A stretch of DNA of 64,000 nucleotides, from IMG/VR virus record IMGVR_UViG_3300008262_000024, positions 28,843 through 92,842 of that record. One strand, written 5' to 3'. A program made the position numbers and the translations under genes. Shown here piece by piece: positions 13,248-48,869 of the stretch. Every line of letters starts with the position of its first letter. Within the stretch, counting starts at the first letter, position 1. A model generated the notes under the pieces. It saw only the letters and a program-made list of their open reading frames with translations. It did not search any database and had not been told where the DNA came from. The DNA is from a virus.

Positions 13248-15332
13248 TTATCTTGAATATAATCCTATACCTAATATATTTTCTACATCTCCATATGATA
13301 ATATATAAGTGCTTTTATCATTAGGATTAGGTTCAAATTTATCTGCTATAAATCCTATTTTACCATCGTCACCTGCATAACCTTGACCCATTACAAACAA
13401 ATCAGGTATTGGTTTACCTGTATTGTCTACTGCATTAGCAATATAATGATAACCTATCTTTATAGGTGTAGTTATAGCTTTACCTTCATTTGCAAAACCT
13501 CTAAGTCTTGTTAATCCTTCAGAGTATTCAATATTAGCAAGCATACTTGATTCATTTAAAAACTCTTCTGTATTTCCTTTATTAGCAGATTTTGTCATGT
13601 CATCTTTAATACTAGTTTTAGTCATTGTTTTTATTTCTCTACTAGTAGCATCATTAATATTAACTATATGAGTACTAATCTCTTTTCCTTTATCATCTTT
13701 TAATATAATTTGATAAGACATTTGATCAGTAATTGGATTTTTAACTAAAGTTATTGAAGATTGTTCTTTATTAGCTTCTGGATTATCTTTTAATATTTGA
13801 TCAAAACCAATATTATTACTTGTACGAGCATTTAATGTTCTATTAAATAATCCTTCTTTAACTGCTTTAGATGTTTGATTTAAATTTGATCCTGGATTAA
13901 TATCAACTATAGTTTGCATTTCTTGAGTAATTGTACCAGATTGTGCAAGTTCTCTTGCTTTAGGTTCATAATAACTATATTTTATTTTACCTAAAGAATG
14001 CATTTGAATGTTATTAACCATTTGTTTAGGATCTGTAGGTGAAATTACAGTTTTACCCCAAGGTGTATATCCTGTAATTTTCTTTTCATCTTTCATATAT
14101 TTAACAAATTCTGATTTAGATAATGGTTTTAAACCATTTTTACCAACAGCTTGTTGCATTTTAGGTAAATATAATGCATTGTTTGCAAGCATAGTGTTAA
14201 ATTCTTTTATATATTCTTGATAATATTTATCAATATATTCAGGCTTGTTTACTGCAGAATGAATTAAATCTATATTTGTTTGTAATGAATTTAAATTATT
14301 TCTTAATTGATCTATTTCTTGTTGTTTCTTTTGTATTTGATAACTATTAAGTTTACCTCTTGTTTCAGGATTTTCAAGTTCTTTTTGTAAAGCAGCTATT
14401 TGATTTTTTGTATTAATTATACTTTGTTTAGCAGAATCATAGTTAATATTAACAGGAGTAGTTTGACCAGTAAATGTTAACAATTGTGATTGTTCTTTTA
14501 ACCTTTGTTCTTGCTCTCTACCCCATTGTGGATTTTCTCTTAATGACTTTGAAGTTTGTGTAAATATTCTTTCATTAATAACTGATTCAACTAAATTATC
14601 AAATGTTGAATTTCTTTTATATCCCATTTTTTCATCCCAATCACCTAAATCATTTAAATAACCTGAATAACTAGAATAAATTGTTGGTAAAACTCTTCTA
14701 ATTAAAGGTTCTAGTTTTTCTCTTGTAATATATCTACCTTCACTATCTACATAAAACTGACCAGTTATACTAGTACTACCATGTGCATCTGCAACAACAT
14801 TATCAACAGCATTTTCAAAATCTGTTCTCATTTTTGTAGAAATTTCTCTAGCATCATATCCTGCACGTTGATTATATGGTCTAAGTGCTCCTGTAGTTGG
14901 ATCATATGTAGAATACATAGGATCTGCTTTTAAACCTAATTCAGGTGCTCCTTTTTCCATTAAAGATGTTAAACTTTTCATAACTTCTTTATGAGGTTCA
15001 ACAGCTGCTGTCATAGTTTGTATTCTTTTATCTTGAGCAATATTTCTAAGTACTTTAGAAAATTCTCTAGATGCAGTATTGAAGTCACCTGTTTGTCTTA
15101 TATAATCTGTAATTTGATATAATTGATCATTATATTCATTTTGAACATGTTTCTTACCTGGCATATCACCAGGATTAACTTCAAAGTTTAAAAGTTTATT
15201 AGCAGCATCACCTTGTGCTAAAGCTGCATCATAACCTTTTTGTTTTTGTTCAGCAACTCCTTGTAAGAATTCCCAAGGCATATCTACTTGAGTAGATACA
15301 TATTCTCTTAATCTAGGTTTATAAAATCTCAT
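13248..15332 (-). CDS. Virion cargo/ejection protein (694 aa)
   Basis: N-terminus RFYKPRLREYVSTQVDMPWEFL resembles the crAss-like cargo protein start; syntenic position after cargo protein 1. Confidence 0.65.
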   Translation of the reverse strand: MRFYKPRLREYVSTQVDMPWEFLQGVAEQKQKGYDAALAQGDAANKLLNFEVNPGDMPGKKHVQNEYNDQLYQITDYIRQTGDFNTASREFSKVLRNIAQDKRIQTMTAAVEPHKEVMKSLTSLMEKGAPELGLKADPMYSTYDPTTGALRPYNQRAGYDAREISTKMRTDFENAVDNVVADAHGSTSITGQFYVDSEGRYITREKLEPLIRRVLPTIYSSYSGYLNDLGDWDEKMGYKRNSTFDNLVESVINERIFTQTSKSLRENPQWGREQEQRLKEQSQLLTFTGQTTPVNINYDSAKQSIINTKNQIAALQKELENPETRGKLNSYQIQKKQQEIDQLRNNLNSLQTNIDLIHSAVNKPEYIDKYYQEYIKEFNTMLANNALYLPKMQQAVGKNGLKPLSKSEFVKYMKDEKKITGYTPWGKTVISPTDPKQMVNNIQMHSLGKIKYSYYEPKARELAQSGTITQEMQTIVDINPGSNLNQTSKAVKEGLFNRTLNARTSNNIGFDQILKDNPEANKEQSSITLVKNPITDQMSYQIILKDDKGKEISTHIVNINDATSREIKTMTKTSIKDDMTKSANKGNTEEFLNESSMLANIEYSEGLTRLRGFANEGKAITTPIKIGYHYIANAVDNTGKPIPDLFVMGQGYAGDDGKIGFIADKFEPNPNDKSTYILSYGDVENILGIGLYSR

Positions 15333-15349: not shown

Positions 15350-18300
15350 CTATTTATTCCACATATTTATTCTACCTTCTGAAGTATTTTTATAAACATC
15401 AGGAGTTCCTTTTCTTTTCCAATAATCAGAAAGTATATCTTGTTTAGCTTTATCTATTTTTTGTACAAAAGCAGGATCATTCATTAATGCTTTTATTTCA
15501 GCTTCTTTCTCTTTAAATAATTTTTCATCTGTTGCTTTAGTTTGTACATCATTTAAAGTAGTAAATCCTGCAGCTAAAAGTAAAACATCTTCTATGTTTC
15601 TTCCAGTATTATATTTATAATCAACTAATCTTTTTTGAACATCAACAGGATAATCTTTTACTTGTGGTAAATATTCTTTAGTTATAAATTCAGTAGCTTC
15701 ATCTTTATCAATTTTATTATCTTTCCACATTTCAGGATATTTCTTAGACCATTTTTCTTTTTTTATACCATAATTTTCAAGACCTGTACCACCTGCTGAT
15801 CCTTTAGTAGATTCATAATCTAAAATTTGATTTATCCATTCATTATTATTTACTTTATCAGCAGGAGTAACATTAGCAGATGGTACATTAGCATTAGCAG
15901 CTGGTGTATTAGCACCTGTATTTGCTGCAGGTGCATTTTGTTTATAAGGATCATTGTAAGGTGTTGGTGTAAAAGTACCTCCTTCAGTATTTGGTACAAA
16001 TTTAAAACCTCCTTGTCCATCTGGAACTAATTTAAAATTACCAGTACCAATATTATTAGCAATAGTTTTATTTACTTGATTAATTCTATAATCTCTAATC
16101 ATATTAGCAGTAGAAGAACCTACACCACTAAGACCTTCTGTTACATTAGTTCTAGCAGCATCTTTTTCTTGCTGTCTATCAATTTGCTCTTGCATTGCTA
16201 TTTGAGCATTTTGTGCATTAACTTGATTTTGCATTTGAGTATTAGCTACATCAGCTTCATACTGTATACCTGCAGTTTGAGCACCTCTTTGATTAGCTGC
16301 TTGTAATCCTAATCCTCTCATATTAGACATATAACTTCCTGATGTAGGAGCACTTTGTCTTAAATTATAACCAGCTAAATCTTGAGCTTGTCTAGATTGT
16401 TTATTAGCTAATATTATTGCTCTATAAGGATCTATTTTATCAGCTTTAATTCTTTCATAATTAACATCATCAGGTCCTTTTAATCCATAGTATAATTGAC
16501 TTAATGGACCTGCAGCTTGTGCTGCCATTGATGCATAATCTAATCCTGTAAGACCTTGATTAGGTTGATTAGGTTGATTAACTTTAGGAATAGATGCTCC
16601 TTCAGGTCTCCAACCTTCTTCATATTGACTAATCATATTTGGATTAATACTTACAGGATCACCATCTAAATTAACACCTTCATATCCCCAATCTAGCATA
16701 GAAGTTGAACCTGTTAAAGGTTGTCCAAGTTCTGAAGGTATATTTTTATTAACAGGTGCATCAATGTTTTCAGTAATAGGTTCTGCAGATGAATTATTTA
16801 TAATATTACCGCTTTTATCAAATTCAAAAGTTTCTAAATCTATAGATTCAGGACCTGCTTTTTTATTTGCACTTACCATAGGTGGTATAAATCCTGAAGT
16901 ATTAGAAGTATTAGAAGTATTAGATACACGTGATGGTGAATATGGTCCAGGTATTTGTTCTACTGGTCTTAAATGTTCTGGTAAAAATGGACTAGGTTGA
17001 TTAATAGGATTTATATTAGGCTGTTGGTTGTTAGTTGTACTTCTATTACCAATTCTAAATCCTCTTTGTTTTAAATAATCTCTAGCACTTAAATAACTTC
17101 TAATTGTATTTAAAAAATTATTCATTGGATTAGGATTTGTATTTTTTTGTCTATCTAAAATACTAGTTGCATTACCTTGAGCATCTATTACATTAGGTGT
17201 ATCCAAATTAGTTAAATAATTATTTATATTATTATATTCTGAAGCATCCATATCTGCCATTCCTGGTAAATCATATGGAGGTCCACCATTAGAATACATA
17301 TTACCACCTTGTGCCATCATCATTCCACCTCTGTTTTGTGCAGCTACTTGAAATGGTTGTGCAACATTAGATACCATTGGACCACCATGTGCATGTTTCC
17401 AACTAGCAGCATTTCTAGCAAAGTTAGCTTTCTTAACCATTGCTGAAGAATAATTTTCTTTATTAGCTAATACTTGTCTTGCAAACTCTTGTACAGATTT
17501 ACCATGTTTAGTGGCTGCTGCAGTAAATGTACCTCTTTTAGATTCTTTAATATGTATACCACCGCCTTCACCATATTGATTAACATAAGCATCAGCTTCT
17601 TGTGGTGACATGTGAGATTCAACTCTTGCTCTTAAAATTTCTTTAGGTAGTTTACCACCTTTGGAATATCCTGGCATATTAAGTCCTTTATATTTTTTAG
17701 GATTAATATATCCACCATAAGCGGCAGCATATTCTTCCTCAACTATTTTTGTAATATCTTTATTTAGTTTACCACCTGCAGCTGCATATTGTAAAGCACC
17801 ATTAACCATAGCTTGTCTTTGTTCTTCTTTAGCCTTAGCTTCAGCTCTAGCAAGTTCTGTTTCTTTAATAGCTCTCTGCTTAATTTGCTCAATAGTTTCT
17901 TCAACTAAAGGATCCATTGGTCTTCTAAGGTTATCTTTATATTTAGATAAATCTCTTAATGTATATTTATCTAATCTTTTTTTAAGATTTTCAGCCATAG
18001 TTCTACCAAACTCATCTGTTTGAGTATTTTGACCATTTACTTCATCTGAAACTACATAACTATCATCAAGAACATATTCTCCACCTTCTGCCATAGCATT
18101 AGGTCCAATAGGTACTCCACCATATGCATTTTCATGATGTAATCCTGATGATTTAGGAATAAGGTTTATTCCATATTTTTCTAAAGTAGTTCCACCTTTA
18201 GAATATCTTGTTCTGTAGTTTTTGTATTTATCTCTCATAGAGTTTTGCAAATTTAATGAATTATTATTTATATTACCACCAGTAGCTGCAAATGATAATC

Positions 18301-21300
18301 CTTGATTTAACATTTGATCAGGATACATTGCAGGATTTTGAAAATTATTTATACTTGAATCTACTGATGGTGTTGTACTTGGCATACCTTGTGAAGGATT
18401 TACAAATCTAGAACCTATTCCTACTAATTGTCCAGCAGCATTTAATTCTTTAGAACCAAATTCAGAACCTAAAGTTCCTAACACTTGACCTGCACCACTA
18501 ACAATTTGTTGAGGATTACCACTTATTATACCAGAAGTTAAATTACCTGCACTAGATGCTATTTGACCTGTTTTATTTGCCCACTTATCAGCACCTCTTT
18601 GATATTCTTGACTATGTCCTAAATTTTTAGTAACTCCTTGTATAGCACCTTTACCCATTCCATATGCAGGACCTAAAAATATTGAACCTGCAACATCAGT
18701 TCCTAAACCTGCAACTCCTTCCATTACAGCAGCTGCATTTGCAAATCCTTTATTATTATAATTAAAATTAACAAAGTTATTACCACTTATTTGTTCAAAT
18801 GGACTAGCTATAAAGTTTAACCCTAATTTACCAATATCTTCTAATACACCACCTCTCTTATATTGCATTGGTACACCTGCATAGTACATATATGGATTCA
18901 TATAACCTCCTTGTGATTGTTGTTCAGGTTGAAGGTTTTGTTTCATTGTTGTTCCTATTACAACACCTGTTGTTCCTGCAAATCCTATTTTATTTAATGA
19001 TTTTCTTATTTTAGATATATCAAAATCATTTACACTTTGAACATATGGATGTTTTTGATTTATTAAATATTGTAATGCATTTTTAATATCTTCATCATCT
19101 TTTGGATAATATACTCTACTACCATCTTTATCATTAAGTATCATTCTTAATTCATTTTGAACAGCTTCAGCTTCATAATGAGCTGCATCATGATTTTTAT
19201 AAACATATGTACCATCTTGGTTTTTTAAACCTTTAGACCAAGCATCATCAAGTATTTTTCTTTCATGAACTGTAGGTAAAGTAGATAGATCTCTTAGAGT
19301 TCTACTATGAGCTGTTTCATGTATTCCAGTAAGATAAGTATCTTCAGGACTTAAATGTGGATCAATTACTATAATATCATCCTTATCCCCAATGTCTCTA
19401 ATACCATATTTACCTTGTGATATATTTCCAGATTTATCTTCTAAATAAAGTCTAGGATTATCTGCAACTTGTTTAAATGGATCTGGTTCTTTTGCATTTT
19501 CAAAATCTCTAAATCTATTAAACGGTTCAACAAGTTCAGGATCATTTGCAAATCTTGCTTTTTGATTACTTAAATTAAATTCATTATTAGTTCTAAATAA
19601 TGAAAGTTTTTTTCTATTATATGGGGATTGTGAAAATGTAGCAGCGTCTTCATTAGCTTGCCATAAAGCAAAATTTCTTTTATCTGCTAATGAAGGTTTT
19701 TGTAATGGATTAATAGGAATATTTGGATTTACTGAAAAATTATTTTTAAAATAGTTTCTATATCCTGTTTTAGCAGTATTTAATCCCATACCTAAACCAC
19801 CAATTACTCCTGGTGATCCTGATAAAAATAAACCTGTTTCTAAACCTCTAGCAAGTTTTTCATCCCAAGGTGCATTAGAACTATAATATCCACTATTTAT
19901 ATCTGATCCTAACATATTTGCACCAGAAATTCCTCCTGTTAATCCTAATATATTATTTCCAGTTAACCACGGTATAGTTCTTCCACCTACTACTGCAGGT
20001 AGTTGTAATGTTGAAGCTACTGCAGGAACAGTTTTAGATGCTATAGCTCCAGCAACTGGTGCAAATAATGCAGCTTCAATTGGACCCATTGTAGGTTCTG
20101 CTCTACCTGATGCTGGTGGTTGATAATTAGGATTTTGTATCCAACCAGTTTCTGAAGGAATAAATCTTGGTGCAGTTGGACCAACAATATCTGGATTATA
20201 TAAACCAGTATCTTCAATATATTCAAGTTCAGGAAGTGTTCTTTGTAACATTTCATCACCTGGCATCATGTAGTATTCATTATTTTCACTACCTACATAA
20301 TTTATCATTTTATTTTGTTTAGGATCCCAAAATTTTTTACGATATAATGTTACAGAATTATTTTTATTACCATCTTTATTATTACCACCTGTTGGTCCAC
20401 CACCATCATACATATATCCACCTGTAGCTTTTTGATTATTTTTAATCCAACCTTTTTCAGTATCTGCACCAGGATACATATCTTTATACATATTATATTG
20501 ATTCCAATCAATTGCTCTCCAACCTTGACCATCATCCATGTATAATTCAGGTGTTCCTCTATCTACACCATCTATAGTACCTTTCTTTAAACTTGGAGAC
20601 ATTTCTCTAAGTAATACTTTAGATGGAAATTTAAGTTGAATAGGACTTAATTTTAAAGGTTCTTCTTTAGATTCAAATCCTTTAAATGGTATAGATTGTA
20701 AGTTTGGTATTTCATCTAAAGTTGCTAATTTAATAGCAGGTTCATCCCAATAAGGAATAGGATATGTATATTGATCTGGATCATTTACAATTGATTCTGG
20801 ATAATATTCACCTCTTTTAAGATGCCAGTTTATATCATGTTCTTTATCAATACCATATGTTTCTACATCAGTAATTTGTTCTATCCAATGATTAGTTTCA
20901 TCTTTTCTATTTGTTATATATGTAGGATGATTTCTTCTATGAGTAACCATATCTAACAATTCTTCTTTTGTTAAATTTGGATAATATTTTTGTAATTCTA
21001 TAAGATTAGTATCATCTTCTATTTCTTTTGTAAAATTTTTTTTCCAAGGAGCTTTAGGTAAATATGTAGTAGCATATGCATTATCTAAAGGTTCAGCTTC
21101 CCAAGAAGTTTGATTATGATATTTTGAAGGTTTATATTTTTTAAATAAATTATTATAATTCCATGGATTATCTAAATCATCATAACGATACTGTGACCAA
21201 TTACTTGTTTCTCCATAATGATGTTCTGGTATTTCTGTAGTATAACTATAAGTTACTGGTGATCCATATGCACCTGTTATTGGATCTTCTGTTAAATTTG

Positions 21301-24300
21301 GATAACTACCATCATCTAAAGGTGATGCATAATAATTAGGAACTTTAACATTGATTGAATTATTCCATTCATCATCTGATATAGTACCTAATTTATCTAC
21401 ATTTGAAAAAATATTGTAAAAATTTTCATCTGAATTTAATAAATATTCTTTTTGATAATATGGTAATTTACTAAATTGATTCAATCTTAATCTTACTAAA
21501 TAATCTTTATATTCAGGACTATCACGTTTATAGTATCTTTTAGGTGGATCATCATCACCACCAAGTAATCCACCATTAGCTGCATATAACATATCTTGAG
21601 ATTTTGTTTGATTACTTACAAAACTATCATTTAGAAATTTTAATTTTTCAGCATCACCTTTTATAAGTTCATATATATCTTTAATGTTAGAATCCAAATT
21701 TTCATCATCAAGATTTTTATTAATTATACTTCTTAATTCTTTAGGACTATAATCTTTAGTAGGATCAATATTATTTAATTGTCTCCATACACTTAATCTA
21801 GCCCTGATTTCTTCATCTTGAGTTAAAGCATCTTTACCACTTAACCATTTTTTATTATTTTTAAATTCTTCAGGAAAACCACTGCTTATATTTAAAAATT
21901 CTTGAGGTGCTTTATTACTTAACCAATGATCATTTTCATGTGTTATTAAAGTATTTATATCTCCATAATATCTATTGTTAAGATCAGTGTCACTATAATC
22001 AATAGTATTTTTAGAAGGAGTATATAATCCTTCAGTTGTCATTTGATTAGAAGGTAATATATTTACTTTAGGATATTGATTTGGAGAGTTTAATAAATTT
22101 AATCTACTATTAGCAACATCTGTAAACTTAGGATTTTTTGCTCTACCTTCATACCACTTTTTAAAATAATCATATGTAGTTTTAGACGATTTATCTTTAT
22201 CTCCACCATCTGAATAAATATAACCACCTGTAGCCTTTGGTTTATCATACAAGTTTCCTCCTGGATCTGGAGCTTCTAAATCTTTAAGAAGATATTGATC
22301 ACTTAATTTTTTAAATTCTAATTCAGGTACTATTTGCTGTTCTTGACCAGAAATCCATACTCTATACATAGGATCTTCATAAGGAGATCTTCTGTATTTC
22401 TCATATGTACCTTCAAAAAAGTTATCTAAATTTGGTTTTCCAAAATCAACATTAGGAGGAGTTGCAATAATACCTGGTCCAACTTCTTCACCTTTATAAG
22501 GTTTTGAAGGTAATAATTCTATTTCTGGTTTTCCTAATATTGGTTTAATTTCTGGTTTTTTAAATATAGGCATTACAGCAGCTCCTTTTACTTTACTAAA
22601 ATGATTACTATCATAAGCAATTTGAAAAGGTTTAATACCATTCTTACCATGCCAATACTCCATTAATGGATCATCTCCTCTAATCATTTCGGGAGCACCT
22701 TCATATTTTTCAAACTCAAACTCTTCTCCAAAATCTTTATATTCTTTTAATTTATTATTTGATACATTATATAAACTTAAACTATCATTATAAGCTCTTT
22801 CAGCTTTTTTAAATTCTGAAGGATTAGTGTATACTCTAGTTTTATTTTTATTTTTTTTATTTTTATCTTTATCACCATCTACATAACCACCTTGAGCAGC
22901 ATATTGCATAGGTGTTTGTGTTTGATTACTAGCAAGTGTATTTAAGTATTTAGATATTTCATCATCAGTATAATATTTAAATAAATGATTTTTATATCCT
23001 GATTCTTTAATTTGTTTTAATCTTTCTGGAGTAATTATTTCACCTGGTTGAAAATTATTATCAAATCTCATTTGCATTAAGAAAGGATACATTTCACCTC
23101 TATTAAAATCTTTATCTAATCTATCTTGAGAAGGTGTTAAAAATTTACCTTTAAATGTTCTATCAAAAGTTTCATTATCATATAAACCTGTTTTATGCAT
23201 TAACTCATGAACAGATACTGATTCTGGACCATATTGATCATTAGCTGCATTTGTAATTACAATTCTACCTTGTTCATCAGTAAATCCTTGAGGATTTTTA
23301 CTCATGGTTTTTTTAAAAAATTTATCATACTCAGGATCATTATAACTAGCTCTATATAAATCAAGTAATTGTGAATTATTTTCTGGATTTGTATTATATA
23401 AAAATTTAGTATCGTAGATATCACTTATAACACCAGGTATTGCTTTATTTATACTTTTTAAATTAGACTCAGCTGCTCTTTGTTTAGCTTCTTTATTTCC
23501 ATAAATTTTTTTACTTAATTTTGAAGCATGGTCTGGAAAATTTTTATTTAATCTATTAGCAAATTCAGGATCTTGAACCCAAGAACTTACCCAATCTTGA
23601 GCAGGTTTAGCAACAGTAACTCCTTGATTTAAAGTAGATTTAAAAGGATCATCTTTACCATCTGTTGGTCCACCTTGAGCTAATGAAACACCTTTATAAA
23701 AATTTGCAAGATCAAAATTTTGTCTATCATATTCTTGTCTACTAGGATAAGTTTGATAATATTCTTCAGGAGTCATTCCTTGATTATTTATAAAACCTTC
23801 TCTCCATCTCATGTAACTATCGTACTCAGAATCTAAAATATCTTTATTTACTCCTGGCATATAAGGATTATCAGTAGGATAAATAATATTATCATCTAAT
23901 AATACTGGAGGTTGTACTAATGATTTGGTAGGTCCACCATGAGCATAAGGAATTCCTGTAGCTTTTTTATATCCTATTGATGATATATAATCAGCATATT
24001 GATTAGGTACTTTTATTGCTTCATTACCAGGATTCATTATAGTAGGATACATATAAGCTTGTCCTGTTTCATCTTCTCCCCATGCCATTAAATGAGAATT
24101 TTTTTGTCCAAATTCATTAACATCTGGTTGTACAAACATATTTGATTCTGGATATTCACCAACAGCATAAGCTCTTTGCACAAAATCTTTATCTCTGTTT
24201 CTGTTCATAATAATTTTAGAAATTAAATCTCCTTCTAAAGTATTAACAGGTCCACCATCAGAATATTGCTTAGCTTTAATTTTCCTTTCTTGCCTAAGCA

Positions 24301-24394
24301 TTTCAGCAGTAGGCTTTTTAGGTTTAGCACCTGTCCTTCTGTTTTGTTCAGCTTTTTTCCTAATGTTTTTCCAGAGTGAGTTTTTTTCTGCCAT
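15350..24394 (-). CDS. Cargo protein 1-like multidomain (poly)protein with three HExxH zincin domains and a C-terminal lysozyme-like domain
   Basis: Directly follows the muzzle gene. Contains HELMH, HENDH and HETAH motifs, about 20 xxGG linker motifs, a Gln/Ala-rich helical region near the C-terminus, and C-terminal ILDYES..NYGI..DYKYNTG (GH108-like). Confidence 0.75.
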   Translation of the reverse strand: MAEKNSLWKNIRKKAEQNRRTGAKPKKPTAEMLRQERKIKAKQYSDGGPVNTLEGDLISKIIMNRNRDKDFVQRAYAVGEYPESNMFVQPDVNEFGQKNSHLMAWGEDETGQAYMYPTIMNPGNEAIKVPNQYADYISSIGYKKATGIPYAHGGPTKSLVQPPVLLDDNIIYPTDNPYMPGVNKDILDSEYDSYMRWREGFINNQGMTPEEYYQTYPSRQEYDRQNFDLANFYKGVSLAQGGPTDGKDDPFKSTLNQGVTVAKPAQDWVSSWVQDPEFANRLNKNFPDHASKLSKKIYGNKEAKQRAAESNLKSINKAIPGVISDIYDTKFLYNTNPENNSQLLDLYRASYNDPEYDKFFKKTMSKNPQGFTDEQGRIVITNAANDQYGPESVSVHELMHKTGLYDNETFDRTFKGKFLTPSQDRLDKDFNRGEMYPFLMQMRFDNNFQPGEIITPERLKQIKESGYKNHLFKYYTDDEISKYLNTLASNQTQTPMQYAAQGGYVDGDKDKNKKNKNKTRVYTNPSEFKKAERAYNDSLSLYNVSNNKLKEYKDFGEEFEFEKYEGAPEMIRGDDPLMEYWHGKNGIKPFQIAYDSNHFSKVKGAAVMPIFKKPEIKPILGKPEIELLPSKPYKGEEVGPGIIATPPNVDFGKPNLDNFFEGTYEKYRRSPYEDPMYRVWISGQEQQIVPELEFKKLSDQYLLKDLEAPDPGGNLYDKPKATGGYIYSDGGDKDKSSKTTYDYFKKWYEGRAKNPKFTDVANSRLNLLNSPNQYPKVNILPSNQMTTEGLYTPSKNTIDYSDTDLNNRYYGDINTLITHENDHWLSNKAPQEFLNISSGFPEEFKNNKKWLSGKDALTQDEEIRARLSVWRQLNNIDPTKDYSPKELRSIINKNLDDENLDSNIKDIYELIKGDAEKLKFLNDSFVSNQTKSQDMLYAANGGLLGGDDDPPKRYYKRDSPEYKDYLVRLRLNQFSKLPYYQKEYLLNSDENFYNIFSNVDKLGTISDDEWNNSINVKVPNYYASPLDDGSYPNLTEDPITGAYGSPVTYSYTTEIPEHHYGETSNWSQYRYDDLDNPWNYNNLFKKYKPSKYHNQTSWEAEPLDNAYATTYLPKAPWKKNFTKEIEDDTNLIELQKYYPNLTKEELLDMVTHRRNHPTYITNRKDETNHWIEQITDVETYGIDKEHDINWHLKRGEYYPESIVNDPDQYTYPIPYWDEPAIKLATLDEIPNLQSIPFKGFESKEEPLKLSPIQLKFPSKVLLREMSPSLKKGTIDGVDRGTPELYMDDGQGWRAIDWNQYNMYKDMYPGADTEKGWIKNNQKATGGYMYDGGGPTGGNNKDGNKNNSVTLYRKKFWDPKQNKMINYVGSENNEYYMMPGDEMLQRTLPELEYIEDTGLYNPDIVGPTAPRFIPSETGWIQNPNYQPPASGRAEPTMGPIEAALFAPVAGAIASKTVPAVASTLQLPAVVGGRTIPWLTGNNILGLTGGISGANMLGSDINSGYYSSNAPWDEKLARGLETGLFLSGSPGVIGGLGMGLNTAKTGYRNYFKNNFSVNPNIPINPLQKPSLADKRNFALWQANEDAATFSQSPYNRKKLSLFRTNNEFNLSNQKARFANDPELVEPFNRFRDFENAKEPDPFKQVADNPRLYLEDKSGNISQGKYGIRDIGDKDDIIVIDPHLSPEDTYLTGIHETAHSRTLRDLSTLPTVHERKILDDAWSKGLKNQDGTYVYKNHDAAHYEAEAVQNELRMILNDKDGSRVYYPKDDEDIKNALQYLINQKHPYVQSVNDFDISKIRKSLNKIGFAGTTGVVIGTTMKQNLQPEQQSQGGYMNPYMYYAGVPMQYKRGGVLEDIGKLGLNFIASPFEQISGNNFVNFNYNNKGFANAAAVMEGVAGLGTDVAGSIFLGPAYGMGKGAIQGVTKNLGHSQEYQRGADKWANKTGQIASSAGNLTSGIISGNPQQIVSGAGQVLGTLGSEFGSKELNAAGQLVGIGSRFVNPSQGMPSTTPSVDSSINNFQNPAMYPDQMLNQGLSFAATGGNINNNSLNLQNSMRDKYKNYRTRYSKGGTTLEKYGINLIPKSSGLHHENAYGGVPIGPNAMAEGGEYVLDDSYVVSDEVNGQNTQTDEFGRTMAENLKKRLDKYTLRDLSKYKDNLRRPMDPLVEETIEQIKQRAIKETELARAEAKAKEEQRQAMVNGALQYAAAGGKLNKDITKIVEEEYAAAYGGYINPKKYKGLNMPGYSKGGKLPKEILRARVESHMSPQEADAYVNQYGEGGGIHIKESKRGTFTAAATKHGKSVQEFARQVLANKENYSSAMVKKANFARNAASWKHAHGGPMVSNVAQPFQVAAQNRGGMMMAQGGNMYSNGGPPYDLPGMADMDASEYNNINNYLTNLDTPNVIDAQGNATSILDRQKNTNPNPMNNFLNTIRSYLSARDYLKQRGFRIGNRSTTNNQQPNINPINQPSPFLPEHLRPVEQIPGPYSPSRVSNTSNTSNTSGFIPPMVSANKKAGPESIDLETFEFDKSGNIINNSSAEPITENIDAPVNKNIPSELGQPLTGSTSMLDWGYEGVNLDGDPVSINPNMISQYEEGWRPEGASIPKVNQPNQPNQGLTGLDYASMAAQAAGPLSQLYYGLKGPDDVNYERIKADKIDPYRAIILANKQSRQAQDLAGYNLRQSAPTSGSYMSNMRGLGLQAANQRGAQTAGIQYEADVANTQMQNQVNAQNAQIAMQEQIDRQQEKDAARTNVTEGLSGVGSSTANMIRDYRINQVNKTIANNIGTGNFKLVPDGQGGFKFVPNTEGGTFTPTPYNDPYKQNAPAANTGANTPAANANVPSANVTPADKVNNNEWINQILDYESTKGSAGGTGLENYGIKKEKWSKKYPEMWKDNKIDKDEATEFITKEYLPQVKDYPVDVQKRLVDYKYNTGRNIEDVLLLAAGFTTLNDVQTKATDEKLFKEKEAEIKALMNDPAFVQKIDKAKQDILSDYWKRKGTPDVYKNTSEGRINMWNK

Positions 24395-24396
24395 AA

Positions 24397-27300
24397 TTAT
24401 CTAGGTAGTATTTTACTTCTTAATGAGTATTCAGTCATTACATCATGTAGTCTGAATATTTTATCTCCACCATTAATAGTATGTTTAAATAGTACATCAA
24501 TATATTTATCAGACATTCTTGGTTTTATAGTTAAGTTAGGATTAGTTTCATCTCTTGGGATTTGTAATCTCCAAGATCTAATCTTCTCAGTAAAGTTAGC
24601 AATTCTTTCATTAACTATTTGATAGTCATTAGATATACCATAACTAGTAATAGTTTCATTTAATTGTTGATCTGTTGCTACATCAATAACTTCAGTATTA
24701 ATAATAAAGTTATCAAATGTCTTTACAAAGTCTGAGTTTTCATTAACTCTAAATTTAATATATGATGGGAATGTAGTTTCATAAAAAGTATTTCTTAATC
24801 CTAGATTATGTGTATATACTTCAGATGTTTGTGAAGGATTAATTGACAAAAATCTTTTTCTCATATTAAGATATAATGATGGATAAAAGTCACAGAAAGA
24901 TTCAAAAGAATCTAATAGTTCATTATATGCAATAGTATAAGAAGTTTCAAATGGTCCATCTGGAACAAAGAATGTAAAATAAACTGTATTGTATTCTGAG
25001 TTGTATCCTGATACAATACCACATCTTTGTGGTGTACCTTGCTTAGTAGGTGGTAATAGAATTTTATCTTTAGTTTTTAATTCAGTATTAACAAATGCAG
25101 TTCTAAAGAATCCACTTAAACCATTAACATCAGTAAGTGGTGATACACCTGCACCATCTTTAGACATTGAATATTTAAACAACTTATTAATAAAAGCATC
25201 ATAGTGATATATAGCAGAACCTGTAGCTTTTACAGCAAATGAATGTTTAGCTCCTGTTTCAGTAGATATATAGTCAAATCTTTGAAGTAAAGTACCTGTA
25301 CCTAATTGAGTTTGTGTAGCATCACCTTCATTAGCAAGTACTCTCTCATTAACAGATGCAACACCAAATCCATCATTTTGATAATAGTATAGTTTATCTT
25401 TAAATTGAACTAGTCTATTGATCTCACCATAGTTACCATTAACAGTAAGTGCATTGTTAATTAAGAATGATCTCCAACTATCTATTCTTTCATTATCTAA
25501 CTTAGGTTCTGTACCATATATAGTATGTGGTTCACGAACTACATTAGTTTGATTTAAGCCTTTAGATATAAATAGGTTAGTTGTATTTTGTTGAGATAGT
25601 GCATCATTATAAACATAATAACTTGGAGTTATTGTATAACTACCTTCAACAGTATCTAATCTATTAGATGCATGTTGATTACTTATATTTAATTCTGTAT
25701 TAAATGATGATTCACAAGGAAAAAATAAACCTAATCCAAATGGAGGATTACTTCCTGGATTTGGACTTATATCCCATCCACTACCTTCTTTATAATTTAT
25801 ATTACTTCTTTGCCAATCAAAATAATTAACATAAGTATCTCCACCAAATACACCATTAGTTACTAATCCACTAGGATAATTATCTTCTGATGTATTTTTA
25901 TCCCAAGGTTGAAAGTGATTAGTAAGTATATAATCATTACCATATCTATCAGATCTTAACCATCCACCATATTGACTTGTTAAATATCTTTCATATGAAG
26001 TTAAATATAATGGTAATTTTAAAGTATTACTATTATATGCTCTAGAAGTATCAGGTCCAGGTTGAATAAATGTCATTAATTCACAAGCATTACCCCATTC
26101 CATATATTCATTATTTTCAGCTTCATTCATGTTAGAAGAAGCCATATTTATAAATGGAAAATCTAAACCTGTAATACTATTAACAGGTAAAGAGCCTCCA
26201 CCTGTTGGATAATTAACATATGTTCTACCTGCTATTTCAAATTTATTTTTAGATGTAGCTGTATAATCTGAAGTTGTACCTGTACTATCTGGTACTAAAG
26301 GATTAGTTGTTTCAAGTCCATAAGTATAATTAAAATCAGCAGATGCTATATAATATAATACTGTATTTGAAGGCCATGTTGCAGAATTAAATATTTTTTG
26401 AGAATAATATGATAATTGACTAAAATCATTAGTCCTACCTATCATTCTCATATAATCATTTGATATAAAAAAACCTGATTTTCTATTTAAAAAATTAGGT
26501 GAATAAAAAGTTTGTATTCTAGCTCTTGTTCTCCAATTAGGATTACCTTGTATTGTTGAATCAAATAACCATCTATCATTTGTAGGAAGTATATCACCAC
26601 TTCTTTCATAAGGTACTATATTATATTTACCTACTGAATCTGGAGCAAATTCTACATATACAGTTGGTAATAAAACACCTGTACCTAATCTAGTACTATT
26701 ATTAATATCTCTTCTAACTCTTACATAAGACCATCCAGATATTTGATCTTTAATAGCTTGAAACTGTGGTTTACTAATGTCTAATGTAAATTTAATACCT
26801 ATTTGTTTTGTATATAAGTCACCACTTACTTGAGAATAACCTGCAGGAAAAACTATTGCTGAAGTACTGTTTACAGTAGAACCACCAGGAAGAGCTTCAA
26901 TTATTAAACCAACAGCACCTAAACCTGCAGGAAATGAAAAATAAACTTGAGTTGAATTATAAACTGATGCAGTTATATCTAAAGCATTAGGTAAAAATGA
27001 AGTATTAAATGTATCAACATAATCTGTTATATCAGACACGCTACCACTAAATAATAAAGTATTATTAAATATAGTTTGACTAAGTGAATCAGAGTAATAT
27101 GAAGGGTCTATTGTTAGAATTGCAAAATCTCTATTACCTGCATTATTATCAGTTAAACCAAAATCTCCATTACTGTCATATGCAAATGGAAACTTAATAT
27201 CACCTATCCAATTAACATAAGATGGATAACCATATATATCATAGAATACAATACCAAATCTATACACTTCACCTCTAGAATATCCTGTAAATAAAGATTC

Positions 27301-29172
27301 TACATAAGGATTTTTCATAGAATCTAATGATGTATTGTTAGATAAATAATAAGTATATGTATCTGTGAATGGTTGTGTAAAATCATTAACACCATCCATA
27401 GCAGGTCTTATATAAGGTGTTGTATTTGGTAAACCTGCAAGTTTAGCTAATTTAGTATCAACAATAAATTCATAACTTATATTTAAACCTTCACCACCTA
27501 ATGTTATACCATCAGATTTATATTTGTATTGAGAATTAGCTCCCCAGTTACCAGCAGATAATGGATTTACAGATATATCAGGATTCTCATCATTAAATGG
27601 ATTTATAACATCAAAATTATCAGGTATTAATGAATAGTCAATAGGACCTGATATATTACCTTCAATAGATATTGTATTACTATTAGCATTTATTAAAACT
27701 GATGGAGTTGATATAGTATCACTTGCATTATATAGTTTAGATATTCTTGAAGAATTAAATCTATAAGCTCTTGCATCAAATGCAGGATCAAAGTATTTAG
27801 TAATTGCATTAGCTGCAAACAATCTATTTCTTACAACATCAAGAGTTTTAAATATTTCTGGTGGTCTATTAAGATTAGCAATCTCTGTAGAATCTACAGG
27901 AATGTCATTCTCATTACCATTGTGAACTATACTTATAAATCCATCATCAGGAATAAATCTTTCATCAAAAAAGAATGCTTCTGGAAAATCTGCAATCTGA
28001 TATACTATATAACCTATTCTAATAATATCATAGTTAGTATCTAAATTAGTTAATTGAATCTTAACTGACTTTTGTGAATTAACTCCTGGTTTACTACCTG
28101 TAACTACATATTTAGAAATATCACCTGAAAATAATGATATTAAACTACTTACAGGTGAGTATGTAGATTTGGCACCTTGATTAGAATATAGTTGATAGAA
28201 GTATTGATATTTACCTGCAGGTAATGTACCACCATCTATTATTTGTTCAATAATAGGTTTTTGTGGTAAGTGTAATGGTATATAAGAAAATAATTCTTCA
28301 GGTGTTGCCCATATTTGAGGGTCTTGTATATTACAAGTTCTTAAGTTATTATACCAATCTGTCCATACTACTCTTGTAATTTCAGTACTTTCAAATCTAC
28401 ATTTTAAATGTTCACTAATAGTATAGTTTCTAGATAGATTTAATCTACCTGCATATTTTAATGTGGTTAATGGTTTTAAAAACAAACCATCTAGTTGTGA
28501 AGTAATTATATTACCAGTAGCATTATTATAAGTTACATCCCATAAAAACCCTTCAGTATCTAAAGGATCTACTGAAGATTCTCCTCCACTACAACTTATA
28601 AGTACTACATTATCATTATATACACCCCATCCTAATATAGTATGGCCAGTAATTTTATCTGTTCTTTGTATATATTCTATATTACTTGTAGTAACAGTTA
28701 TACTAGAATTAATAATATCTGATTGTGGTTTAAAATCATATAGTACTACATTATTAGAATTAAAATAAAACTTTAAATTTTCTTTACCAGAAAATATAAA
28801 TGTAGGATCTGCAAGTATATTATTTAATTCAATACTTATAAACTCATATGATTTATCTTGTATGTTATTTATAGTAAAGAAATTTTGTTCAACATAAGAA
28901 AAACCTGTTGAAGGATCAAACACTGTTCTTTGTATAAATATAAATGCTGTACCTGAGTAATTATTAATCTTGGTAAATGAATGTGTAGCTTCAATTGGAG
29001 GTAACTTAAAGTCAAACTTATTACCTCTAATGTTTTCTATAGCAAATGTTGATGAACCCTCATCAGTAATTACCCTGATGTTTTTAGCATCAAGGTAACT
29101 ATCTGGTTGAGTTTTAAGTTTTGAAAAGTCTGAATTTAATCCTTTAATCCAAGTGTTCTTACTTACTGGCAT
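24397..29172 (-). CDS. Muzzle / tail stabilization protein (P22 gp10-like)
   Basis: N-terminal GLNSD..SYLDAKNIR motif, GKYQYFYQL, RGEVYRFGIVF and GGDTY motifs; size and synteny match the crAss-like muzzle. Confidence 0.85.
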   Translation of the reverse strand: MPVSKNTWIKGLNSDFSKLKTQPDSYLDAKNIRVITDEGSSTFAIENIRGNKFDFKLPPIEATHSFTKINNYSGTAFIFIQRTVFDPSTGFSYVEQNFFTINNIQDKSYEFISIELNNILADPTFIFSGKENLKFYFNSNNVVLYDFKPQSDIINSSITVTTSNIEYIQRTDKITGHTILGWGVYNDNVVLISCSGGESSVDPLDTEGFLWDVTYNNATGNIITSQLDGLFLKPLTTLKYAGRLNLSRNYTISEHLKCRFESTEITRVVWTDWYNNLRTCNIQDPQIWATPEELFSYIPLHLPQKPIIEQIIDGGTLPAGKYQYFYQLYSNQGAKSTYSPVSSLISLFSGDISKYVVTGSKPGVNSQKSVKIQLTNLDTNYDIIRIGYIVYQIADFPEAFFFDERFIPDDGFISIVHNGNENDIPVDSTEIANLNRPPEIFKTLDVVRNRLFAANAITKYFDPAFDARAYRFNSSRISKLYNASDTISTPSVLINANSNTISIEGNISGPIDYSLIPDNFDVINPFNDENPDISVNPLSAGNWGANSQYKYKSDGITLGGEGLNISYEFIVDTKLAKLAGLPNTTPYIRPAMDGVNDFTQPFTDTYTYYLSNNTSLDSMKNPYVESLFTGYSRGEVYRFGIVFYDIYGYPSYVNWIGDIKFPFAYDSNGDFGLTDNNAGNRDFAILTIDPSYYSDSLSQTIFNNTLLFSGSVSDITDYVDTFNTSFLPNALDITASVYNSTQVYFSFPAGLGAVGLIIEALPGGSTVNSTSAIVFPAGYSQVSGDLYTKQIGIKFTLDISKPQFQAIKDQISGWSYVRVRRDINNSTRLGTGVLLPTVYVEFAPDSVGKYNIVPYERSGDILPTNDRWLFDSTIQGNPNWRTRARIQTFYSPNFLNRKSGFFISNDYMRMIGRTNDFSQLSYYSQKIFNSATWPSNTVLYYIASADFNYTYGLETTNPLVPDSTGTTSDYTATSKNKFEIAGRTYVNYPTGGGSLPVNSITGLDFPFINMASSNMNEAENNEYMEWGNACELMTFIQPGPDTSRAYNSNTLKLPLYLTSYERYLTSQYGGWLRSDRYGNDYILTNHFQPWDKNTSEDNYPSGLVTNGVFGGDTYVNYFDWQRSNINYKEGSGWDISPNPGSNPPFGLGLFFPCESSFNTELNISNQHASNRLDTVEGSYTITPSYYVYNDALSQQNTTNLFISKGLNQTNVVREPHTIYGTEPKLDNERIDSWRSFLINNALTVNGNYGEINRLVQFKDKLYYYQNDGFGVASVNERVLANEGDATQTQLGTGTLLQRFDYISTETGAKHSFAVKATGSAIYHYDAFINKLFKYSMSKDGAGVSPLTDVNGLSGFFRTAFVNTELKTKDKILLPPTKQGTPQRCGIVSGYNSEYNTVYFTFFVPDGPFETSYTIAYNELLDSFESFCDFYPSLYLNMRKRFLSINPSQTSEVYTHNLGLRNTFYETTFPSYIKFRVNENSDFVKTFDNFIINTEVIDVATDQQLNETITSYGISNDYQIVNERIANFTEKIRSWRLQIPRDETNPNLTIKPRMSDKYIDVLFKHTINGGDKIFRLHDVMTEYSLRSKILPR

Positions 29173-33334: not shown

Positions 33335-33886
33335 TTATTTAAAAAGTGTTACTCTACCAAATTTGGTGTATTGTTTATTGTTTACATCTTTATAACTAAG
33401 TTTATAGGTATAGACATCATCTTGGCAAATTTCACCTTTGTATGTACCATCCCATCTATTGTTTAAATCATTACTTACAAAAAGTAATTCTCCCCATCTA
33501 TTCCAGATAGTAAGTTTAAAATCTTTAATGTTAATTCCATAAGCACCAAATGTATCATTAACTCTATCATCATTAGGTGTAAATGAATTAGGTATCCATA
33601 AAAAACTTTCCTTACATTCAATGATTTGTAATACTAATAAGTCTTTAGTATAACAATAACCATTGCTAAAAGTAGCAGTAATTACATATGTACCCAAGTC
33701 ACTGATAGTTATTGTCATAACATCATCATTAACTTGGTAAGGTATTAAAGGGGAAACACTCCAGTTTATAGATTGTGCTGAAGTGTTTGCTCTTATTTCC
33801 TTCTGAATATATGAATCACATAATTCATATGTTGTTTGTGCCATGAGATTCATACTTATCAATAATGTAAGTAGTGTATATTTCAT
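33335..33886 (-). CDS. Secreted protein with T9SS type B (gliding motility-associated, CHU_C) C-terminal sorting domain
   Basis: Signal peptide ending LMA|Q; C-terminal IPNSFTPNDDRVND..IWNRWGELLF..WDGTYKG..GRVTLFK is the canonical type B CTD. Confidence 0.92.
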   Translation of the reverse strand: MKYTLLTLLISMNLMAQTTYELCDSYIQKEIRANTSAQSINWSVSPLIPYQVNDDVMTITISDLGTYVITATFSNGYCYTKDLLVLQIIECKESFLWIPNSFTPNDDRVNDTFGAYGINIKDFKLTIWNRWGELLFVSNDLNNRWDGTYKGEICQDDVYTYKLSYKDVNNKQYTKFGRVTLFK

Positions 33887-36409: not shown

Positions 36410-36868
36410 CTAACTAAAGTACAAACTTGCTTCTTCTTCTCTTCTTCTAACTAGACCTTTAAGAGTTTTACCACCTGCTTTTACCCACTTCATAAACTCA
36501 GTTTTTATAGTAGGATCATTTGGATTAGCATTTATTTTCTTTAATAATGTACTAGCTTTAAGATTAGCTGGACCCAGATTAAAGCAAAAAGATACTAATG
36601 CATCAAATTGATTTTGATTAAGTTTATCTGTACAATAACTATCTACATATTGCTCAAATTTTTCTAAATGTTTCTTTAGAATAACCTCAGCAACAGCTTC
36701 ATTTATTGGATCATCAGTTAATTTAACTTTAGTACCATCAGGATAGAATGTTGCACCAAAACCAATTGTAGCTACATTAGCAGGACAGAGGTATGGTTTA
36801 GATCTAAATCCTTCATACTTTTTAATAAGGTCTACACCCTTTTTACTTGTTTTAGTTATTTTAGTCAT
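36410..36868 (-). CDS. Phage lysozyme (GH24) endolysin
   Basis: EGFRSKPYLCPANVATIGFG, QNQFDALVSF.FNLG and GLVRRREEEA motifs. Confidence 0.93.
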   Translation of the reverse strand: MTKITKTSKKGVDLIKKYEGFRSKPYLCPANVATIGFGATFYPDGTKVKLTDDPINEAVAEVILKKHLEKFEQYVDSYCTDKLNQNQFDALVSFCFNLGPANLKASTLLKKINANPNDPTIKTEFMKWVKAGGKTLKGLVRRREEEASLYFS

Positions 36869-47591: not shown

Positions 47592-48869
47592 TTAACCGCA
47601 ATCGCAAGTACCTGAAACTGGTTTAAATCCTGCACCAGCTACCCAAGTATCAAGAGTAGTTAAAATATCTGCACCTTGATTATTACAAGAATCTTCAATG
47701 TAGAAAATTGCAGAACCCTTGTTTTCACCAGCACCAATGAGTGAAGGAAGCTTGTTTAACCATCCTAATATAGCTACATCATATGTACCATTAGGATCAG
47801 CATCTTGCTCACGGAACAATGGTGGAACTTGGTCTACAAATACCTGACCTTCATCACCCCAAGAAATGTATTCATCATTAGCAGCTTGCTCATAAACACC
47901 TACACCATCAAATGCAGCAGTAGTTGTAACAGGAGTTGTTACAGTACCACTTACAAATGCATCATTAATAAACGGATTAAATCTAACTTTGTCATACTGT
48001 CTCCAACGATTAACATCATACTTTTGTTTGATACCTTCAATCTTAATACCCCAATTATTAGTAGTAGGAGTAACACTAAATACTTGTGTATCAAGATAAG
48101 TTGCACTTTCTCCTTGAAAAGCATAATCTAAAATAATAGTATATGTACCTGCAACACCAGAAAATCCAGTAACTACTTTATAAATAGAAGTATTAGTTGC
48201 AGATGATCCAAATCTAAGATATGTTCCTGAAGTAATAGCAGCAGGACCAGTAGTTGTTATTGTAACAGCTTTTGAATATTTAGTTACTTTTAAATCTACA
48301 ATGTCAGTATCAATTGCAGCAGTACTTGTACTACCATTTACTGTTGATGAAAATACTCTCCAATCAGTAGTTCTATTTGGTTTAAAGTTTTGAATTAAAG
48401 ATTTTACAAGACCTGTAGCAATTTCTTCTTCAGTAGCAGATCCATCTGATTTATAAGTACCATACTTGTAGTTAGCAGGACGCTTACCATAAGCAAATGA
48501 GTTAGGTACATGCTCAAGTTTAATTTCATAGAAAGTATCATTGTTAGTAGCAATTGAACCTGTAGTACCATTGTAACCAATAAAAGATGTTTGTTCAGTA
48601 GCAGCTTGGTAACAAGCAGCAGAATATGCAATTATATCAGCAATGTTTAATCTTACTTGTTGAAGTGGAAGATTAGCACCACGATCTTTTACAATCTTAA
48701 TTGTAGAGTAATCATTAACATTACTAGAATTAAGTACATTGTTACTAACATCTGTTACTACTACAGTTCCAGTAGCAGCTGCACCAGGAGTCATTTTTGT
48801 AGCTGTGGTCACTGCCAAATCAGGTACAATAAATACACTCTTGATATTATTTTTTGAATCTAAAGCCAT
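47592..48869 (-). CDS. Auxiliary capsid (decoration) protein
   Basis: 425 aa, Thr/Ala-rich; own promoter and terminator; position after the ring gene; AFDGVGVYEQ resembles the crAss auxiliary capsid motif. Confidence 0.65.
   Translation of the reverse strand: MALDSKNNIKSVFIVPDLAVTTATKMTPGAAATGTVVVTDVSNNVLNSSNVNDYSTIKIVKDRGANLPLQQVRLNIADIIAYSAACYQAATEQTSFIGYNGTTGSIATNNDTFYEIKLEHVPNSFAYGKRPANYKYGTYKSDGSATEEEIATGLVKSLIQNFKPNRTTDWRVFSSTVNGSTSTAAIDTDIVDLKVTKYSKAVTITTTGPAAITSGTYLRFGSSATNTSIYKVVTGFSGVAGTYTIILDYAFQGESATYLDTQVFSVTPTTNNWGIKIEGIKQKYDVNRWRQYDKVRFNPFINDAFVSGTVTTPVTTTAAFDGVGVYEQAANDEYISWGDEGQVFVDQVPPLFREQDADPNGTYDVAILGWLNKLPSLIGAGENKGSAIFYIEDSCNNQGADILTTLDTWVAGAGFKPVSGTCDCG

Follow-up and report, generated by a model that had tools for sequence, protein, structure and literature searches.

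Conserved Gly-Gly junction peptides between exchangeable modules of a giant homologue of crassvirus cargo protein C1

Among phages of the human gut, crassviruses are the most abundant, and they have relatives that are common in water. To our knowledge, the storage and ejection of their protein cargo of about 5 MDa are largely unknown. A stretch of 64,000 nucleotides from such a virus (the window; positions 28,843 to 92,842 of IMG/VR virus record IMGVR_UViG_3300008262_000024) contains an open reading frame (ORF) for a protein of 3014 amino acids (aa) in which a short peptide ending in Gly-Gly (GG) recurs about 20 times. A sequence-only reading of the window had proposed an injected polyprotein, built as a modular cassette and cut at the GG sites. 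It placed the start of the gene correctly at 24394 but its end wrongly at 17280; the ORF runs on to 15350, so that only residues 1-2371 of the 3014 had been covered. The question raised by this locus is what the peptide is for, and whether the chain is cut there. The protein is a giant mosaic homologue of the crassvirus cargo protein C1 (gp45 of phage crAss001), the motif is real and selected, and the evidence leans towards an uncut joint over a polyprotein cutting site.

When checked against the translation, the motif positions listed in the sequence-only reading were all exact. GG occurs at residues 47, 153, 241, 502, 723, 730, 941/945, 1325/1331, 1829, 1848, 2039 and 2067, and further at 2207, 2227, 2246, 2277, 2337, 2356, 2363 and 2370; the linkers described after the motifs (GGPT, GGDKDK, GGDDDPPK) are present too. 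Enrichment was measured against 1000 residue shuffles of the 3014-aa protein. GG dipeptides number 34 against 19.1 expected, a count reached in one of the 1000 shuffles. None of the shuffles reached the counts for the longer patterns [YFLMHK][AS].GG (12 observed, 0.69 expected), Y..GG (9 and 1.13) and Y[AS].GG (6 and 0.15). As the pattern was defined after the sequence had been seen, independent controls weigh more than these counts. Fifteen other ORFs of the window have no copy or a single one, and all of the approximately 60 large homologues that form the comparison set (mosaic proteins of 1657-2964 aa) have 7 to 21. Across 78 related viral loci, three or more copies occur in one ORF per locus, which is always the C1 homologue. 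Motif number also grows with protein length (r = 0.82, 116 distinct C1 proteins).

The family logo, drawn from 1719 GG sites, reads [M/Q]-Y-A-x-G-G-[P/Y/M]-[I/M/V/L]. Two positions before the first glycine, the most frequent residues are Ala (0.47), Ser (0.09), Tyr (0.06), Pro (0.05), Asn (0.05) and Gly (0.04); Met, Leu and Ile fall outside these six, each below 4%. Glycine is also enriched seven residues to either side of GG because copies can stand as tandem heptads, for example at residues 2355-2371. In an alignment of 21 sequences with 37-75% identity, the GG pairs at 2039, 2067, 2227, 2337, 2356 and 2363 are invariant and the linkers around them vary. At the DNA level only GGT-GGW (about 6 nucleotides) is common to the motif copies, and codon use is that of the gene's other glycines; the repeat therefore exists as a protein feature and not as a DNA element. 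The motif is also common at the C-terminus: GG lies in the last 20 aa of 46 of 79 C1 proteins (58%) as against 42 of 733 other ORFs (6%). Copies often stand 8-13 residues from the end, and many small C1 proteins terminate in K-G-G-Y-L-T-I-K-K-K. Literature searches, in which coverage of subscription journals was limited, found no published description of the motif. As a mild oddity only, the 694-aa protein encoded next to the giant gene and a 425-aa protein of the structural region (47592-48869) have no GG at all, with 6-8% glycine and about 2.7-2.9 GG expected.

Comparison with the large homologues by BLAST revealed that the protein is a mosaic. Residues 48-1830 are made up of modules that are each common to 2-23 relatives, varying by stretch, and residues from about 1850 to 2800 are common to most relatives; nothing in the large homologues corresponds to the last 209 residues. 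The ends of these similarities coincide with the motif. Of 390 internal ends of high-scoring segment pairs (HSPs), 54% lie within 5 aa of a GG, compared with 12% for random sites, and none of 2000 randomisations reached this value. Where at least seven HSP ends cluster, 13 of the 14 clusters are 0-5 aa from a GG (residues 52, 154, 239, 505, 731, 939, 1330, 1827, 2035, 2247, 2279, 2360 and 2791), the sole cluster away from one being at residue 2573. The tandem heptad site is the commonest breakpoint, with 56 HSP ends, and 40 more cluster at about residue 52; sequences diverge directly past the GG of the N-terminal leader. A search of viral contigs for related loci with residues 48-1200 found none.

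AlphaFold models place the same peptides between modules. All nine GG sites in the model of residues 1-1200 are in stretches with a predicted local distance difference test (pLDDT) score below 50 (41-48, 50-154, 227-247, 494-515, 703-740 and 927-955); stretches of this kind make up 47% of that model. In the model of residues 1820-2810 the figure is 14 of 16, the exceptions being residue 2104, a conserved GG inside the CARG1 domain, and residue 2795. Thus 23 of 25 GG sites are in low-confidence stretches between blocks, and the better-predicted blocks (248-493, CARG1, a short block at 2251-2274 and a K-G-T-F-T module) are all bracketed by motifs. Taken together, the motif, the AlphaFold confidence blocks and the mosaic homology divide the protein into at least 12 segments. 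Motifs between modules, together with gain and loss of domains bounded by GG in relatives, support the earlier proposal of a modular cassette with new payloads added between motifs. Giant C1 relatives (P0016, P0063 and P0033/P0046) carry an ADP-ribosyltransferase (PF03496), an N-acetylmuramoyl-L-alanine amidase (PF01510) and DUF3597 (PF12200), none of which occurs here; the cassette repertoire therefore includes candidate host-modifying enzymes.

The identity of the gene is clear from three lines of evidence. Pfam family PF25725 (crAss_CARG1) matches residues 2075-2194 with 28.6 bits against a cut-off of 27, and with 30.8 bits when the segment is searched in isolation. Among 48,161 Protein Data Bank (PDB) representatives compared with VIA-align, the best structural match of the 1820-2810 model is 7qog_M, the solved gp45 chain (Z 9.1, root-mean-square deviation 2.8 Å, 109 residues aligned, 31% identity; residues 248-373 of the model against chain residues 425-552), and BLASTP aligns residues 2075-2191 to gp45 440-551. 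The gene order muzzle, 3014-aa ORF and then ORFs of 694, 2118 and more than 2293 aa matches gp44-gp45-gp46-gp47 of crAss001, that is, muzzle, C1, C2 and RNA polymerase (RNAP) subunits. Domain, fold and synteny together identify the gene as that of the C1 cargo (ejection) protein, and to this extent the earlier description as a cargo protein is borne out. By homology with gp45, the protein is probably carried in the particle and injected, and we infer that its N-terminal part would lie in the tail with CARG1 on the portal. Other searches gave little: the whole protein had no match among PDB sequences with phmmer, neither AlphaFold model had a Foldseek match in the PDB at E ≤ 0.001, Pfam searches of ten individual segments (E ≤ 1) yielded CARG1 only and PHROGs gave phrog_20603 only.

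Resemblance to gp45 extends to the parts of the protein, as both contain CARG1, a K-G-x-F-T-A module, a Gly-rich hydrophobic segment and the GG motif, in a gene that follows the muzzle and precedes C2 and the RNAP subunits. However, gp45 has 842 aa, so that the protein described here is about 3.5 times as long, and identity in the shared pieces is about 26-34%. About 1830 extra residues at the N-terminus (the leader and seven modules, three of them with the metallopeptidase signature HExxH) and a C-terminal module are absent from gp45. The order of modules is permuted, since the K-G-T-F-T module follows CARG1 here and precedes it in gp45 (residues 2264-2340 align to gp45 360-430), and the helix beside CARG1 lacks the spacer of about 180 residues found in gp45.

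Structures of gp45 are available (PDB 7QOG, 7QOI, 7QOJ, 7QOL and 8CKB; Bayfield et al. 2023, PMC10172136) and bear directly on the proposal that the chain is cut at GG. In those structures gp45 is modelled as one chain bridging tail and capsid; the paper leaves the motif unmentioned and contains no word beginning 'cleav' or 'proteoly' (PMC10172136). Copies of the motif in gp45 are S-A-Y-G-G 209, A-F-A-E-G-G 263, K-A-F-G-G 332, N-A-F-G-G 427, F-A-Y-G-G 562 and K-A-K-G-G 828. The portal-bound piece resolved by cryo-electron microscopy comprises residues 425-552 (PMC10172136), a range confirmed for 7qog_M. It opens with A-F-G-G and then continues into the domain, so that in the mature virion this junction is ordered and part of a single modelled chain. 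The tail-bound helix (214-245) begins four residues past S-A-Y-G-G.

Other properties of the motif also argue against cutting, and the claim as made finds no support in the solved junction, in the residue at P4, in protease searches or in the relation to HExxH. Cleavage at GG has known consensus sequences, namely (M/L/I)xGG for the adenovirus protease, GG-X for pS273R of African swine fever virus, LRGG for ubiquitin and the double-glycine leaders of bacteriocins. The motif is like these in being a recurrent x-x-x-G-G in exposed linkers of a virion protein. However, its P4 residue is Ala (47%) or Ser (9%), with an aromatic residue one place further out, whereas GG sites of the adenovirus and ubiquitin types are hydrophobic at P4. 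Searches of the genome for clan CE and C39 peptidases were negative: hidden Markov models (HMMs) for C5 (PF00770), C48 (PF02902) and C39 (PF03412) had no match at E ≤ 10 in the 92.8-kb record, that for DUF4157 found nothing there, and the only peptidases in Pfam scans of 69 further ORFs were an M15 cell-wall enzyme and a weak M42, with no prohead-protease family. As the record is 55% complete (CheckV) and novel or remote proteases would be missed, this point is weak. The three HExxH sequences of the protein (residues 396, 819 and 1692, against about 0.02 expected from composition) are not needed for the motif, which is kept in 27 of 61 large homologues and 46 of 47 small C1 proteins that have no HExxH; its logo is indistinguishable between giants with and without one. 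If the motif is cut, the built-in zincins are therefore not the general enzyme. Furthermore, at copies 8-13 residues from the C-terminus a cut would free only a tiny peptide.

Published mass data for crAss001 are silent on the matter. Tryptic masses of 32 crAss001 proteins were compared with the published peak lists from matrix-assisted laser desorption/ionization for gel bands 1-10 (PMC6235969, supplement 14). Band 3 was identified as gp50 and gp47, band 4 as gp49 (with gp44), band 5 as the portal gp20 (weak), band 6 as gp26 and gp22, band 7 as gp22 and gp25, band 8 as gp25 and band 9 as gp23. With one to five chance-level matches per band, gp45 (90.7 kDa) was undetected in bands 1-10, from about 70 to more than 300 kDa. 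Since the 12-copy portal is itself barely seen, the absence of gp45 says nothing on whether it is intact or cut. An argument for cleavage from tail volume was considered and dropped: 12 N-terminal extensions of 201 kDa amount to 2.4 MDa, against a capacity of about 0.4 MDa for the crAss001 tail (PMC10172136), but the chain could cross the portal after about 250 residues, with the remaining modules in the capsid. The crAss001 genome (NC_049977) is annotated with a small DUF4157 zincin-like HExxH protein, Gp4 (1145-1537), and an aspartyl protease, Gp66; either could be a candidate for a protease acting in trans on gp45.

The reading that we favour, and to which we give about an even chance, is that the conserved motif stays uncut and serves as a hinge or junction in an ejection protein that is threaded. 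A gp45-like core (about 1849-2800), formed by the Gly-rich hydrophobic segment, CARG1, the K-G-T-F-T-A-A-A module and a helical C-terminal region, would have been extended N-terminally by a 48-residue leader and about seven modules, three with HExxH, and by one extra module at the C-terminus. Between each module and the next lies a disordered linker with [M/Q]-Y-A-x-G-G-x-[I/M/V/L] at its centre; this peptide may serve as a flexible elbow whose short flank can be recognised, and keep the modules as independent beads on one chain. Such a chain could be kept in a partly unfolded state, run through portal and tail, and leave the particle one module at a time. Over evolution, the same peptide would mark the seam for module swaps.

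Several points weigh against this reading. A pure hinge needs no conserved Tyr/Met, Ala or hydrophobic residue after GG, and the conserved flanks mean that something probably recognises the peptide. Internal proteins of phage T4 have removable targeting peptides, and by analogy the leader with its motif and the short tail past the last motif would fit such peptides too. Zincin-like modules, which could process the chain, occur in more than half of the giant relatives. The evidence for an ordered, continuous junction is limited to one junction of one relative, where 126 of the 128 residues of 425-552 are modelled and the positions of the two absent ones were not located; it bears on the virion, and cleavage after ejection is outside its reach. 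In addition, the AlphaFold models are poor overall (mean pLDDT 57 and 42), so that placement between modules leans partly on absent prediction.

Cutting therefore has to be weighed in its own right. If the motif is a protease site, the chain would be cut at or next to GG and the modules freed as separate effectors, during head maturation or, more plausibly, after ejection in the host, by a GG-specific host peptidase or, in some lineages, by the built-in zincin-like modules. We hold this to be unlikely, but it is a serious contender: the motif has a specific sequence, occurs in exposed disordered linkers and flanks each module, and there are three HExxH modules, one with a confidently predicted, probably zincin-like fold. 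A hydrophobic residue one or two positions past GG would suit the P1' preference of zincins, and Bacteroides thetaiotaomicron, used as a control genome, encodes both C39 and C48 peptidases. Built-in metallopeptidases have been proposed to process polyvalent phage proteins, and DdrB of phage P1 is cut before packaging (PMC5512222). The failure to see intact gp45 at 77-300 kDa in the gel fingerprints adds weakly at most, as the portal was barely seen either. On the other side stand the solved crAss001 chain that includes A-F-G-G and runs into the next domain, the Ala/Ser at P4, the lack of C5, C39, C48, DUF4157 and prohead-protease families in the 92.8-kb genome, the unchanged motif in relatives without HExxH and the copies close to the C-terminus; nor does any other ORF of the loci have as many as three copies of the motif. 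A particular form of this idea, a code for staged release in which one injected chain is cut in the host at Tyr-Ala-x-Gly-Gly by a host peptidase or by its own zincins, is in our view rather improbable. If true, it would turn one ejection protein into a dozen effectors, an arsenal reprogrammed by cassette swaps between identical junctions.

Alternatively, each copy of the motif might be a docking tag that binds the portal, tail rings, scaffold or inner capsid and so loads and positions the cargo, by analogy with the cargo-loading peptides of encapsulins and the capsid-targeting sequence of T4 internal proteins. Conserved residues on both sides of GG and the frequency of copies at the extreme N- and C-termini would agree with this, as would the restriction of the motif in this phage to one cargo protein known (as C1) to dock to portal and tail. 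Both resolved virion-binding pieces of gp45 start at or just past a motif, but the portal and ring contacts are described for the domains after the motifs and not for the motif itself (PMC10172136). No binding partner was identified, about 20 copies on up to 12 chains far exceed the 12 portal sites, and other cargo (the protein in C2 position and the RNAP subunits) lacks the motif yet must be packaged; a tag of this kind is thus doubtful, and we rate it quite low. That the motif is a functionless scar or a DNA-level recombination signal, merely marking past joints, is very improbable. It would explain why homology breakpoints coincide with the motif, but not why GG pairs and flanks are invariant at 37-75% identity while linkers vary, and the 6 or so shared nucleotides (GGT GGW), with ordinary glycine codons, are too short for homologous recombination. 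The uncut junction is hence retained as the preferred reading. The data show the motif, its conservation and place between modules, the exchange of modules there and the C1 identity of the gene; that the junction stays uncut in the virion, and its hinge and threading roles, are what we infer.

The modules themselves (Table 1) differ in how much can be said of them. The leader is predicted as two helices (pLDDT about 50-56) and is a candidate for the unassigned 14-residue helix at the crAss001 muzzle, or for an ejection or packaging signal. Residues 248-493, flanked by GG241 and GG502, are the one confidently folded part of the 1-1200 model (pLDDT 84-95). The six best VIA-align matches of module 242-503 are all zinc metallopeptidases: 3zuk (Z 5.8), 4iuw (5.6), 9kn2 (5.6), 4cth (5.5), 1yqy (5.4) and 3dwb (5.0), comprising Zmp1 (Z 5.8), two PepO, neprilysin, anthrax lethal factor (Z 5.4) and ECE-1. 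Next, at Z 4.3, come deuterolysin, a peptidyl-Lys peptidase and a Pro-Pro endopeptidase. Given these modest values and the lack of a Pfam family, the module is called probably zincin-like and no more. In a search for stand-alone copies, the 242-505 module occurred only inside C1-like proteins of at least 777 aa.

For module 1560-1830, the ESM Atlas gave a lead to LPD23 (0.87) that was not confirmed, as the PF18838 HMM finds nothing in the genome at E ≤ 10. The three HExxH modules were considered as paralogues and rejected as such, as BLAST detected no significant similarity between any of them. Modules 503-730 and 946-1330 instead form the best internal pair (26% identity over 162 aa, E 0.036; window 20405-22888), and this weak similarity hints at an old internal duplication. 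From its composition, the segment 1849-2039 may be the counterpart of the Gly-rich N-terminal region of gp45, which is predicted to be transmembrane. The K-G-T-F-T-A-A-A module (pLDDT 74-78) is present in 28 annotated phage records. The C-terminal add-on clusters in the ESM Atlas with PF05838 (0.89-0.90), but HMM searches did not confirm this, and a GH108-like muramidase is a possible assignment, as a lead only.

Table 1. Coordinates in the window of the giant C1 homologue, its parts and related structural genes
Feature	Position	Strand	Basis or remark
Giant mosaic C1 homologue, whole ORF (P0001)	15350..24394	-	ORF list and translation; 3014 aa
Basic N-terminal leader, residues 1-48, ends in Y-S-D-G-G	24251..24394	-	Near-invariant in most large homologues
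Module 242-503, probable zincin-like metallopeptidase fold	22886..23671	-	HExxH at 396, Glu about 41 aa later
Module 731-946, second HExxH (residue 819)	21557..22204	-	Between GG730 and GG941/945; fold low-confidence
Module 1560-1830, third HExxH (residue 1692)	18905..19717	-	HExxH context
Gly/Ala-rich hydrophobic segment, residues 1849-2039	18278..18850	-	Read from sequence; kept in 39-47 homologues
CARG1 portal-binding domain, residues 2067-2194, begins at Y-S-K-G-G	17813..18196	-	PF25725, 7qog_M match, BLASTP
Small K-G-T-F-T-A-A-A module, residues 2279-2338, ends in H-A-H-G-G	17381..17560	-	phrog_20603, E 1.1e-05
Tandem heptad motif copies, residues 2355-2371 (R-G-G-M-M-M-A-Q-G-G-N-M-Y-S-N-G-G)	17282..17332	-	Invariant columns, 21-sequence alignment
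Conserved helical C-terminal core, residues 2573-2795	16010..16678	-	In 19-27 homologues; long helices, pLDDT 55-69
C-terminal add-on module, residues 2806-3014	15353..15979	-	No counterpart in about 60 large homologues
Muzzle protein, upstream neighbour, synteny anchor	24397..29172	-	PF25731 crAss_MUZ, E 2.8e-146
694-aa protein, downstream neighbour in cargo protein C2 position	13248..15332	-	Gene order; no motif
Portal protein, 844 aa	53465..55999	-	32% identity to crAss001 gp20, E 4e-123

The window belongs to a crAss-like phage. Besides the gene order around C1, it encodes a Crass_capsid major capsid protein (50696-52201, E 6.6e-102) and tail ring proteins 1 and 3/4, as well as the portal, which in crAss001 is the known docking partner of the CARG1 domain (PMC10172136). 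The capsid protein is at most about 33% identical to that of any classified crassvirus, making this phage a distant member. A 183-aa protein (33335-33886, minus strand) has a CHU_C type IX secretion sorting domain (PF13585, E 1.3e-16) and adjoins PKD-like proteins and a phage lysozyme (PF00959), near 36410-36868. A type IX sorting domain in a phage protein points to a Bacteroidota host.

Two known classes of multi-module proteins invite comparison. Polyvalent proteins (Iyer, Burroughs, Anand, de Souza and Aravind 2017, PMC5512222) likewise join many unrelated modules in one very large chain that is probably delivered with DNA, and they include zincin-like (HExxH) modules, of which the present protein has probable examples. 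Phage polypeptides of that class have 2-15 distinct domains (PMC5512222), a range into which a 3014-aa protein of at least 12 segments fits, and the ADP-ribosyltransferase, amidase and DUF3597 modules of C1 relatives add to the resemblance. Signs of a zincin here are the three HExxH sequences and the modest matches of 248-493 to zinc peptidases at Z 4.3-5.8, but no Pfam peptidase family matched and DUF4157 is absent. In contrast, none of the signature LPD/conflict domains was confirmed by HMM (Pfam on the ten segments and PF18838 on the genome), and the core is that of a structural ejection protein, complete with a domain for portal docking. The protein thus works like a polyvalent protein but cannot be filed as one. 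The polyvalent-protein paper contains neither 'glycine' nor 'linker' and hence describes no junction motif (PMC5512222).

Short conserved peptides that mark the seam at which variable modules are exchanged are also a property of polymorphic toxins, as in VENN of CdiA and PxxxxDPxGL of Rhs. There, one seam precedes a single C-terminal toxin; here, about 20 seams occur on one chain, and the protein is phage virion cargo. The present analysis adds the mapping of the 3014-aa architecture onto gp45, its permuted module order, statistics on the breakpoints and evidence that the motif does not depend on HExxH modules, and it confirms computationally that the motif opens the solved gp45 chain.

Through the insertion of cassettes, C1 can grow from about 850 to about 3000 residues, and for hundreds of giant proteins that lack annotation the junction peptide predicts the module boundaries. 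The cultured phage crAss001 offers, in GG, a small mutable target for distinguishing cargo that is threaded intact from cargo that is docked or processed. Were cleavage to prove true, it would amount to a polyprotein strategy new to tailed phages. As it stands, the junction peptide delimits the exchangeable modules of the first-ejected protein and gives a handle on how crassviruses store and eject their cargo.

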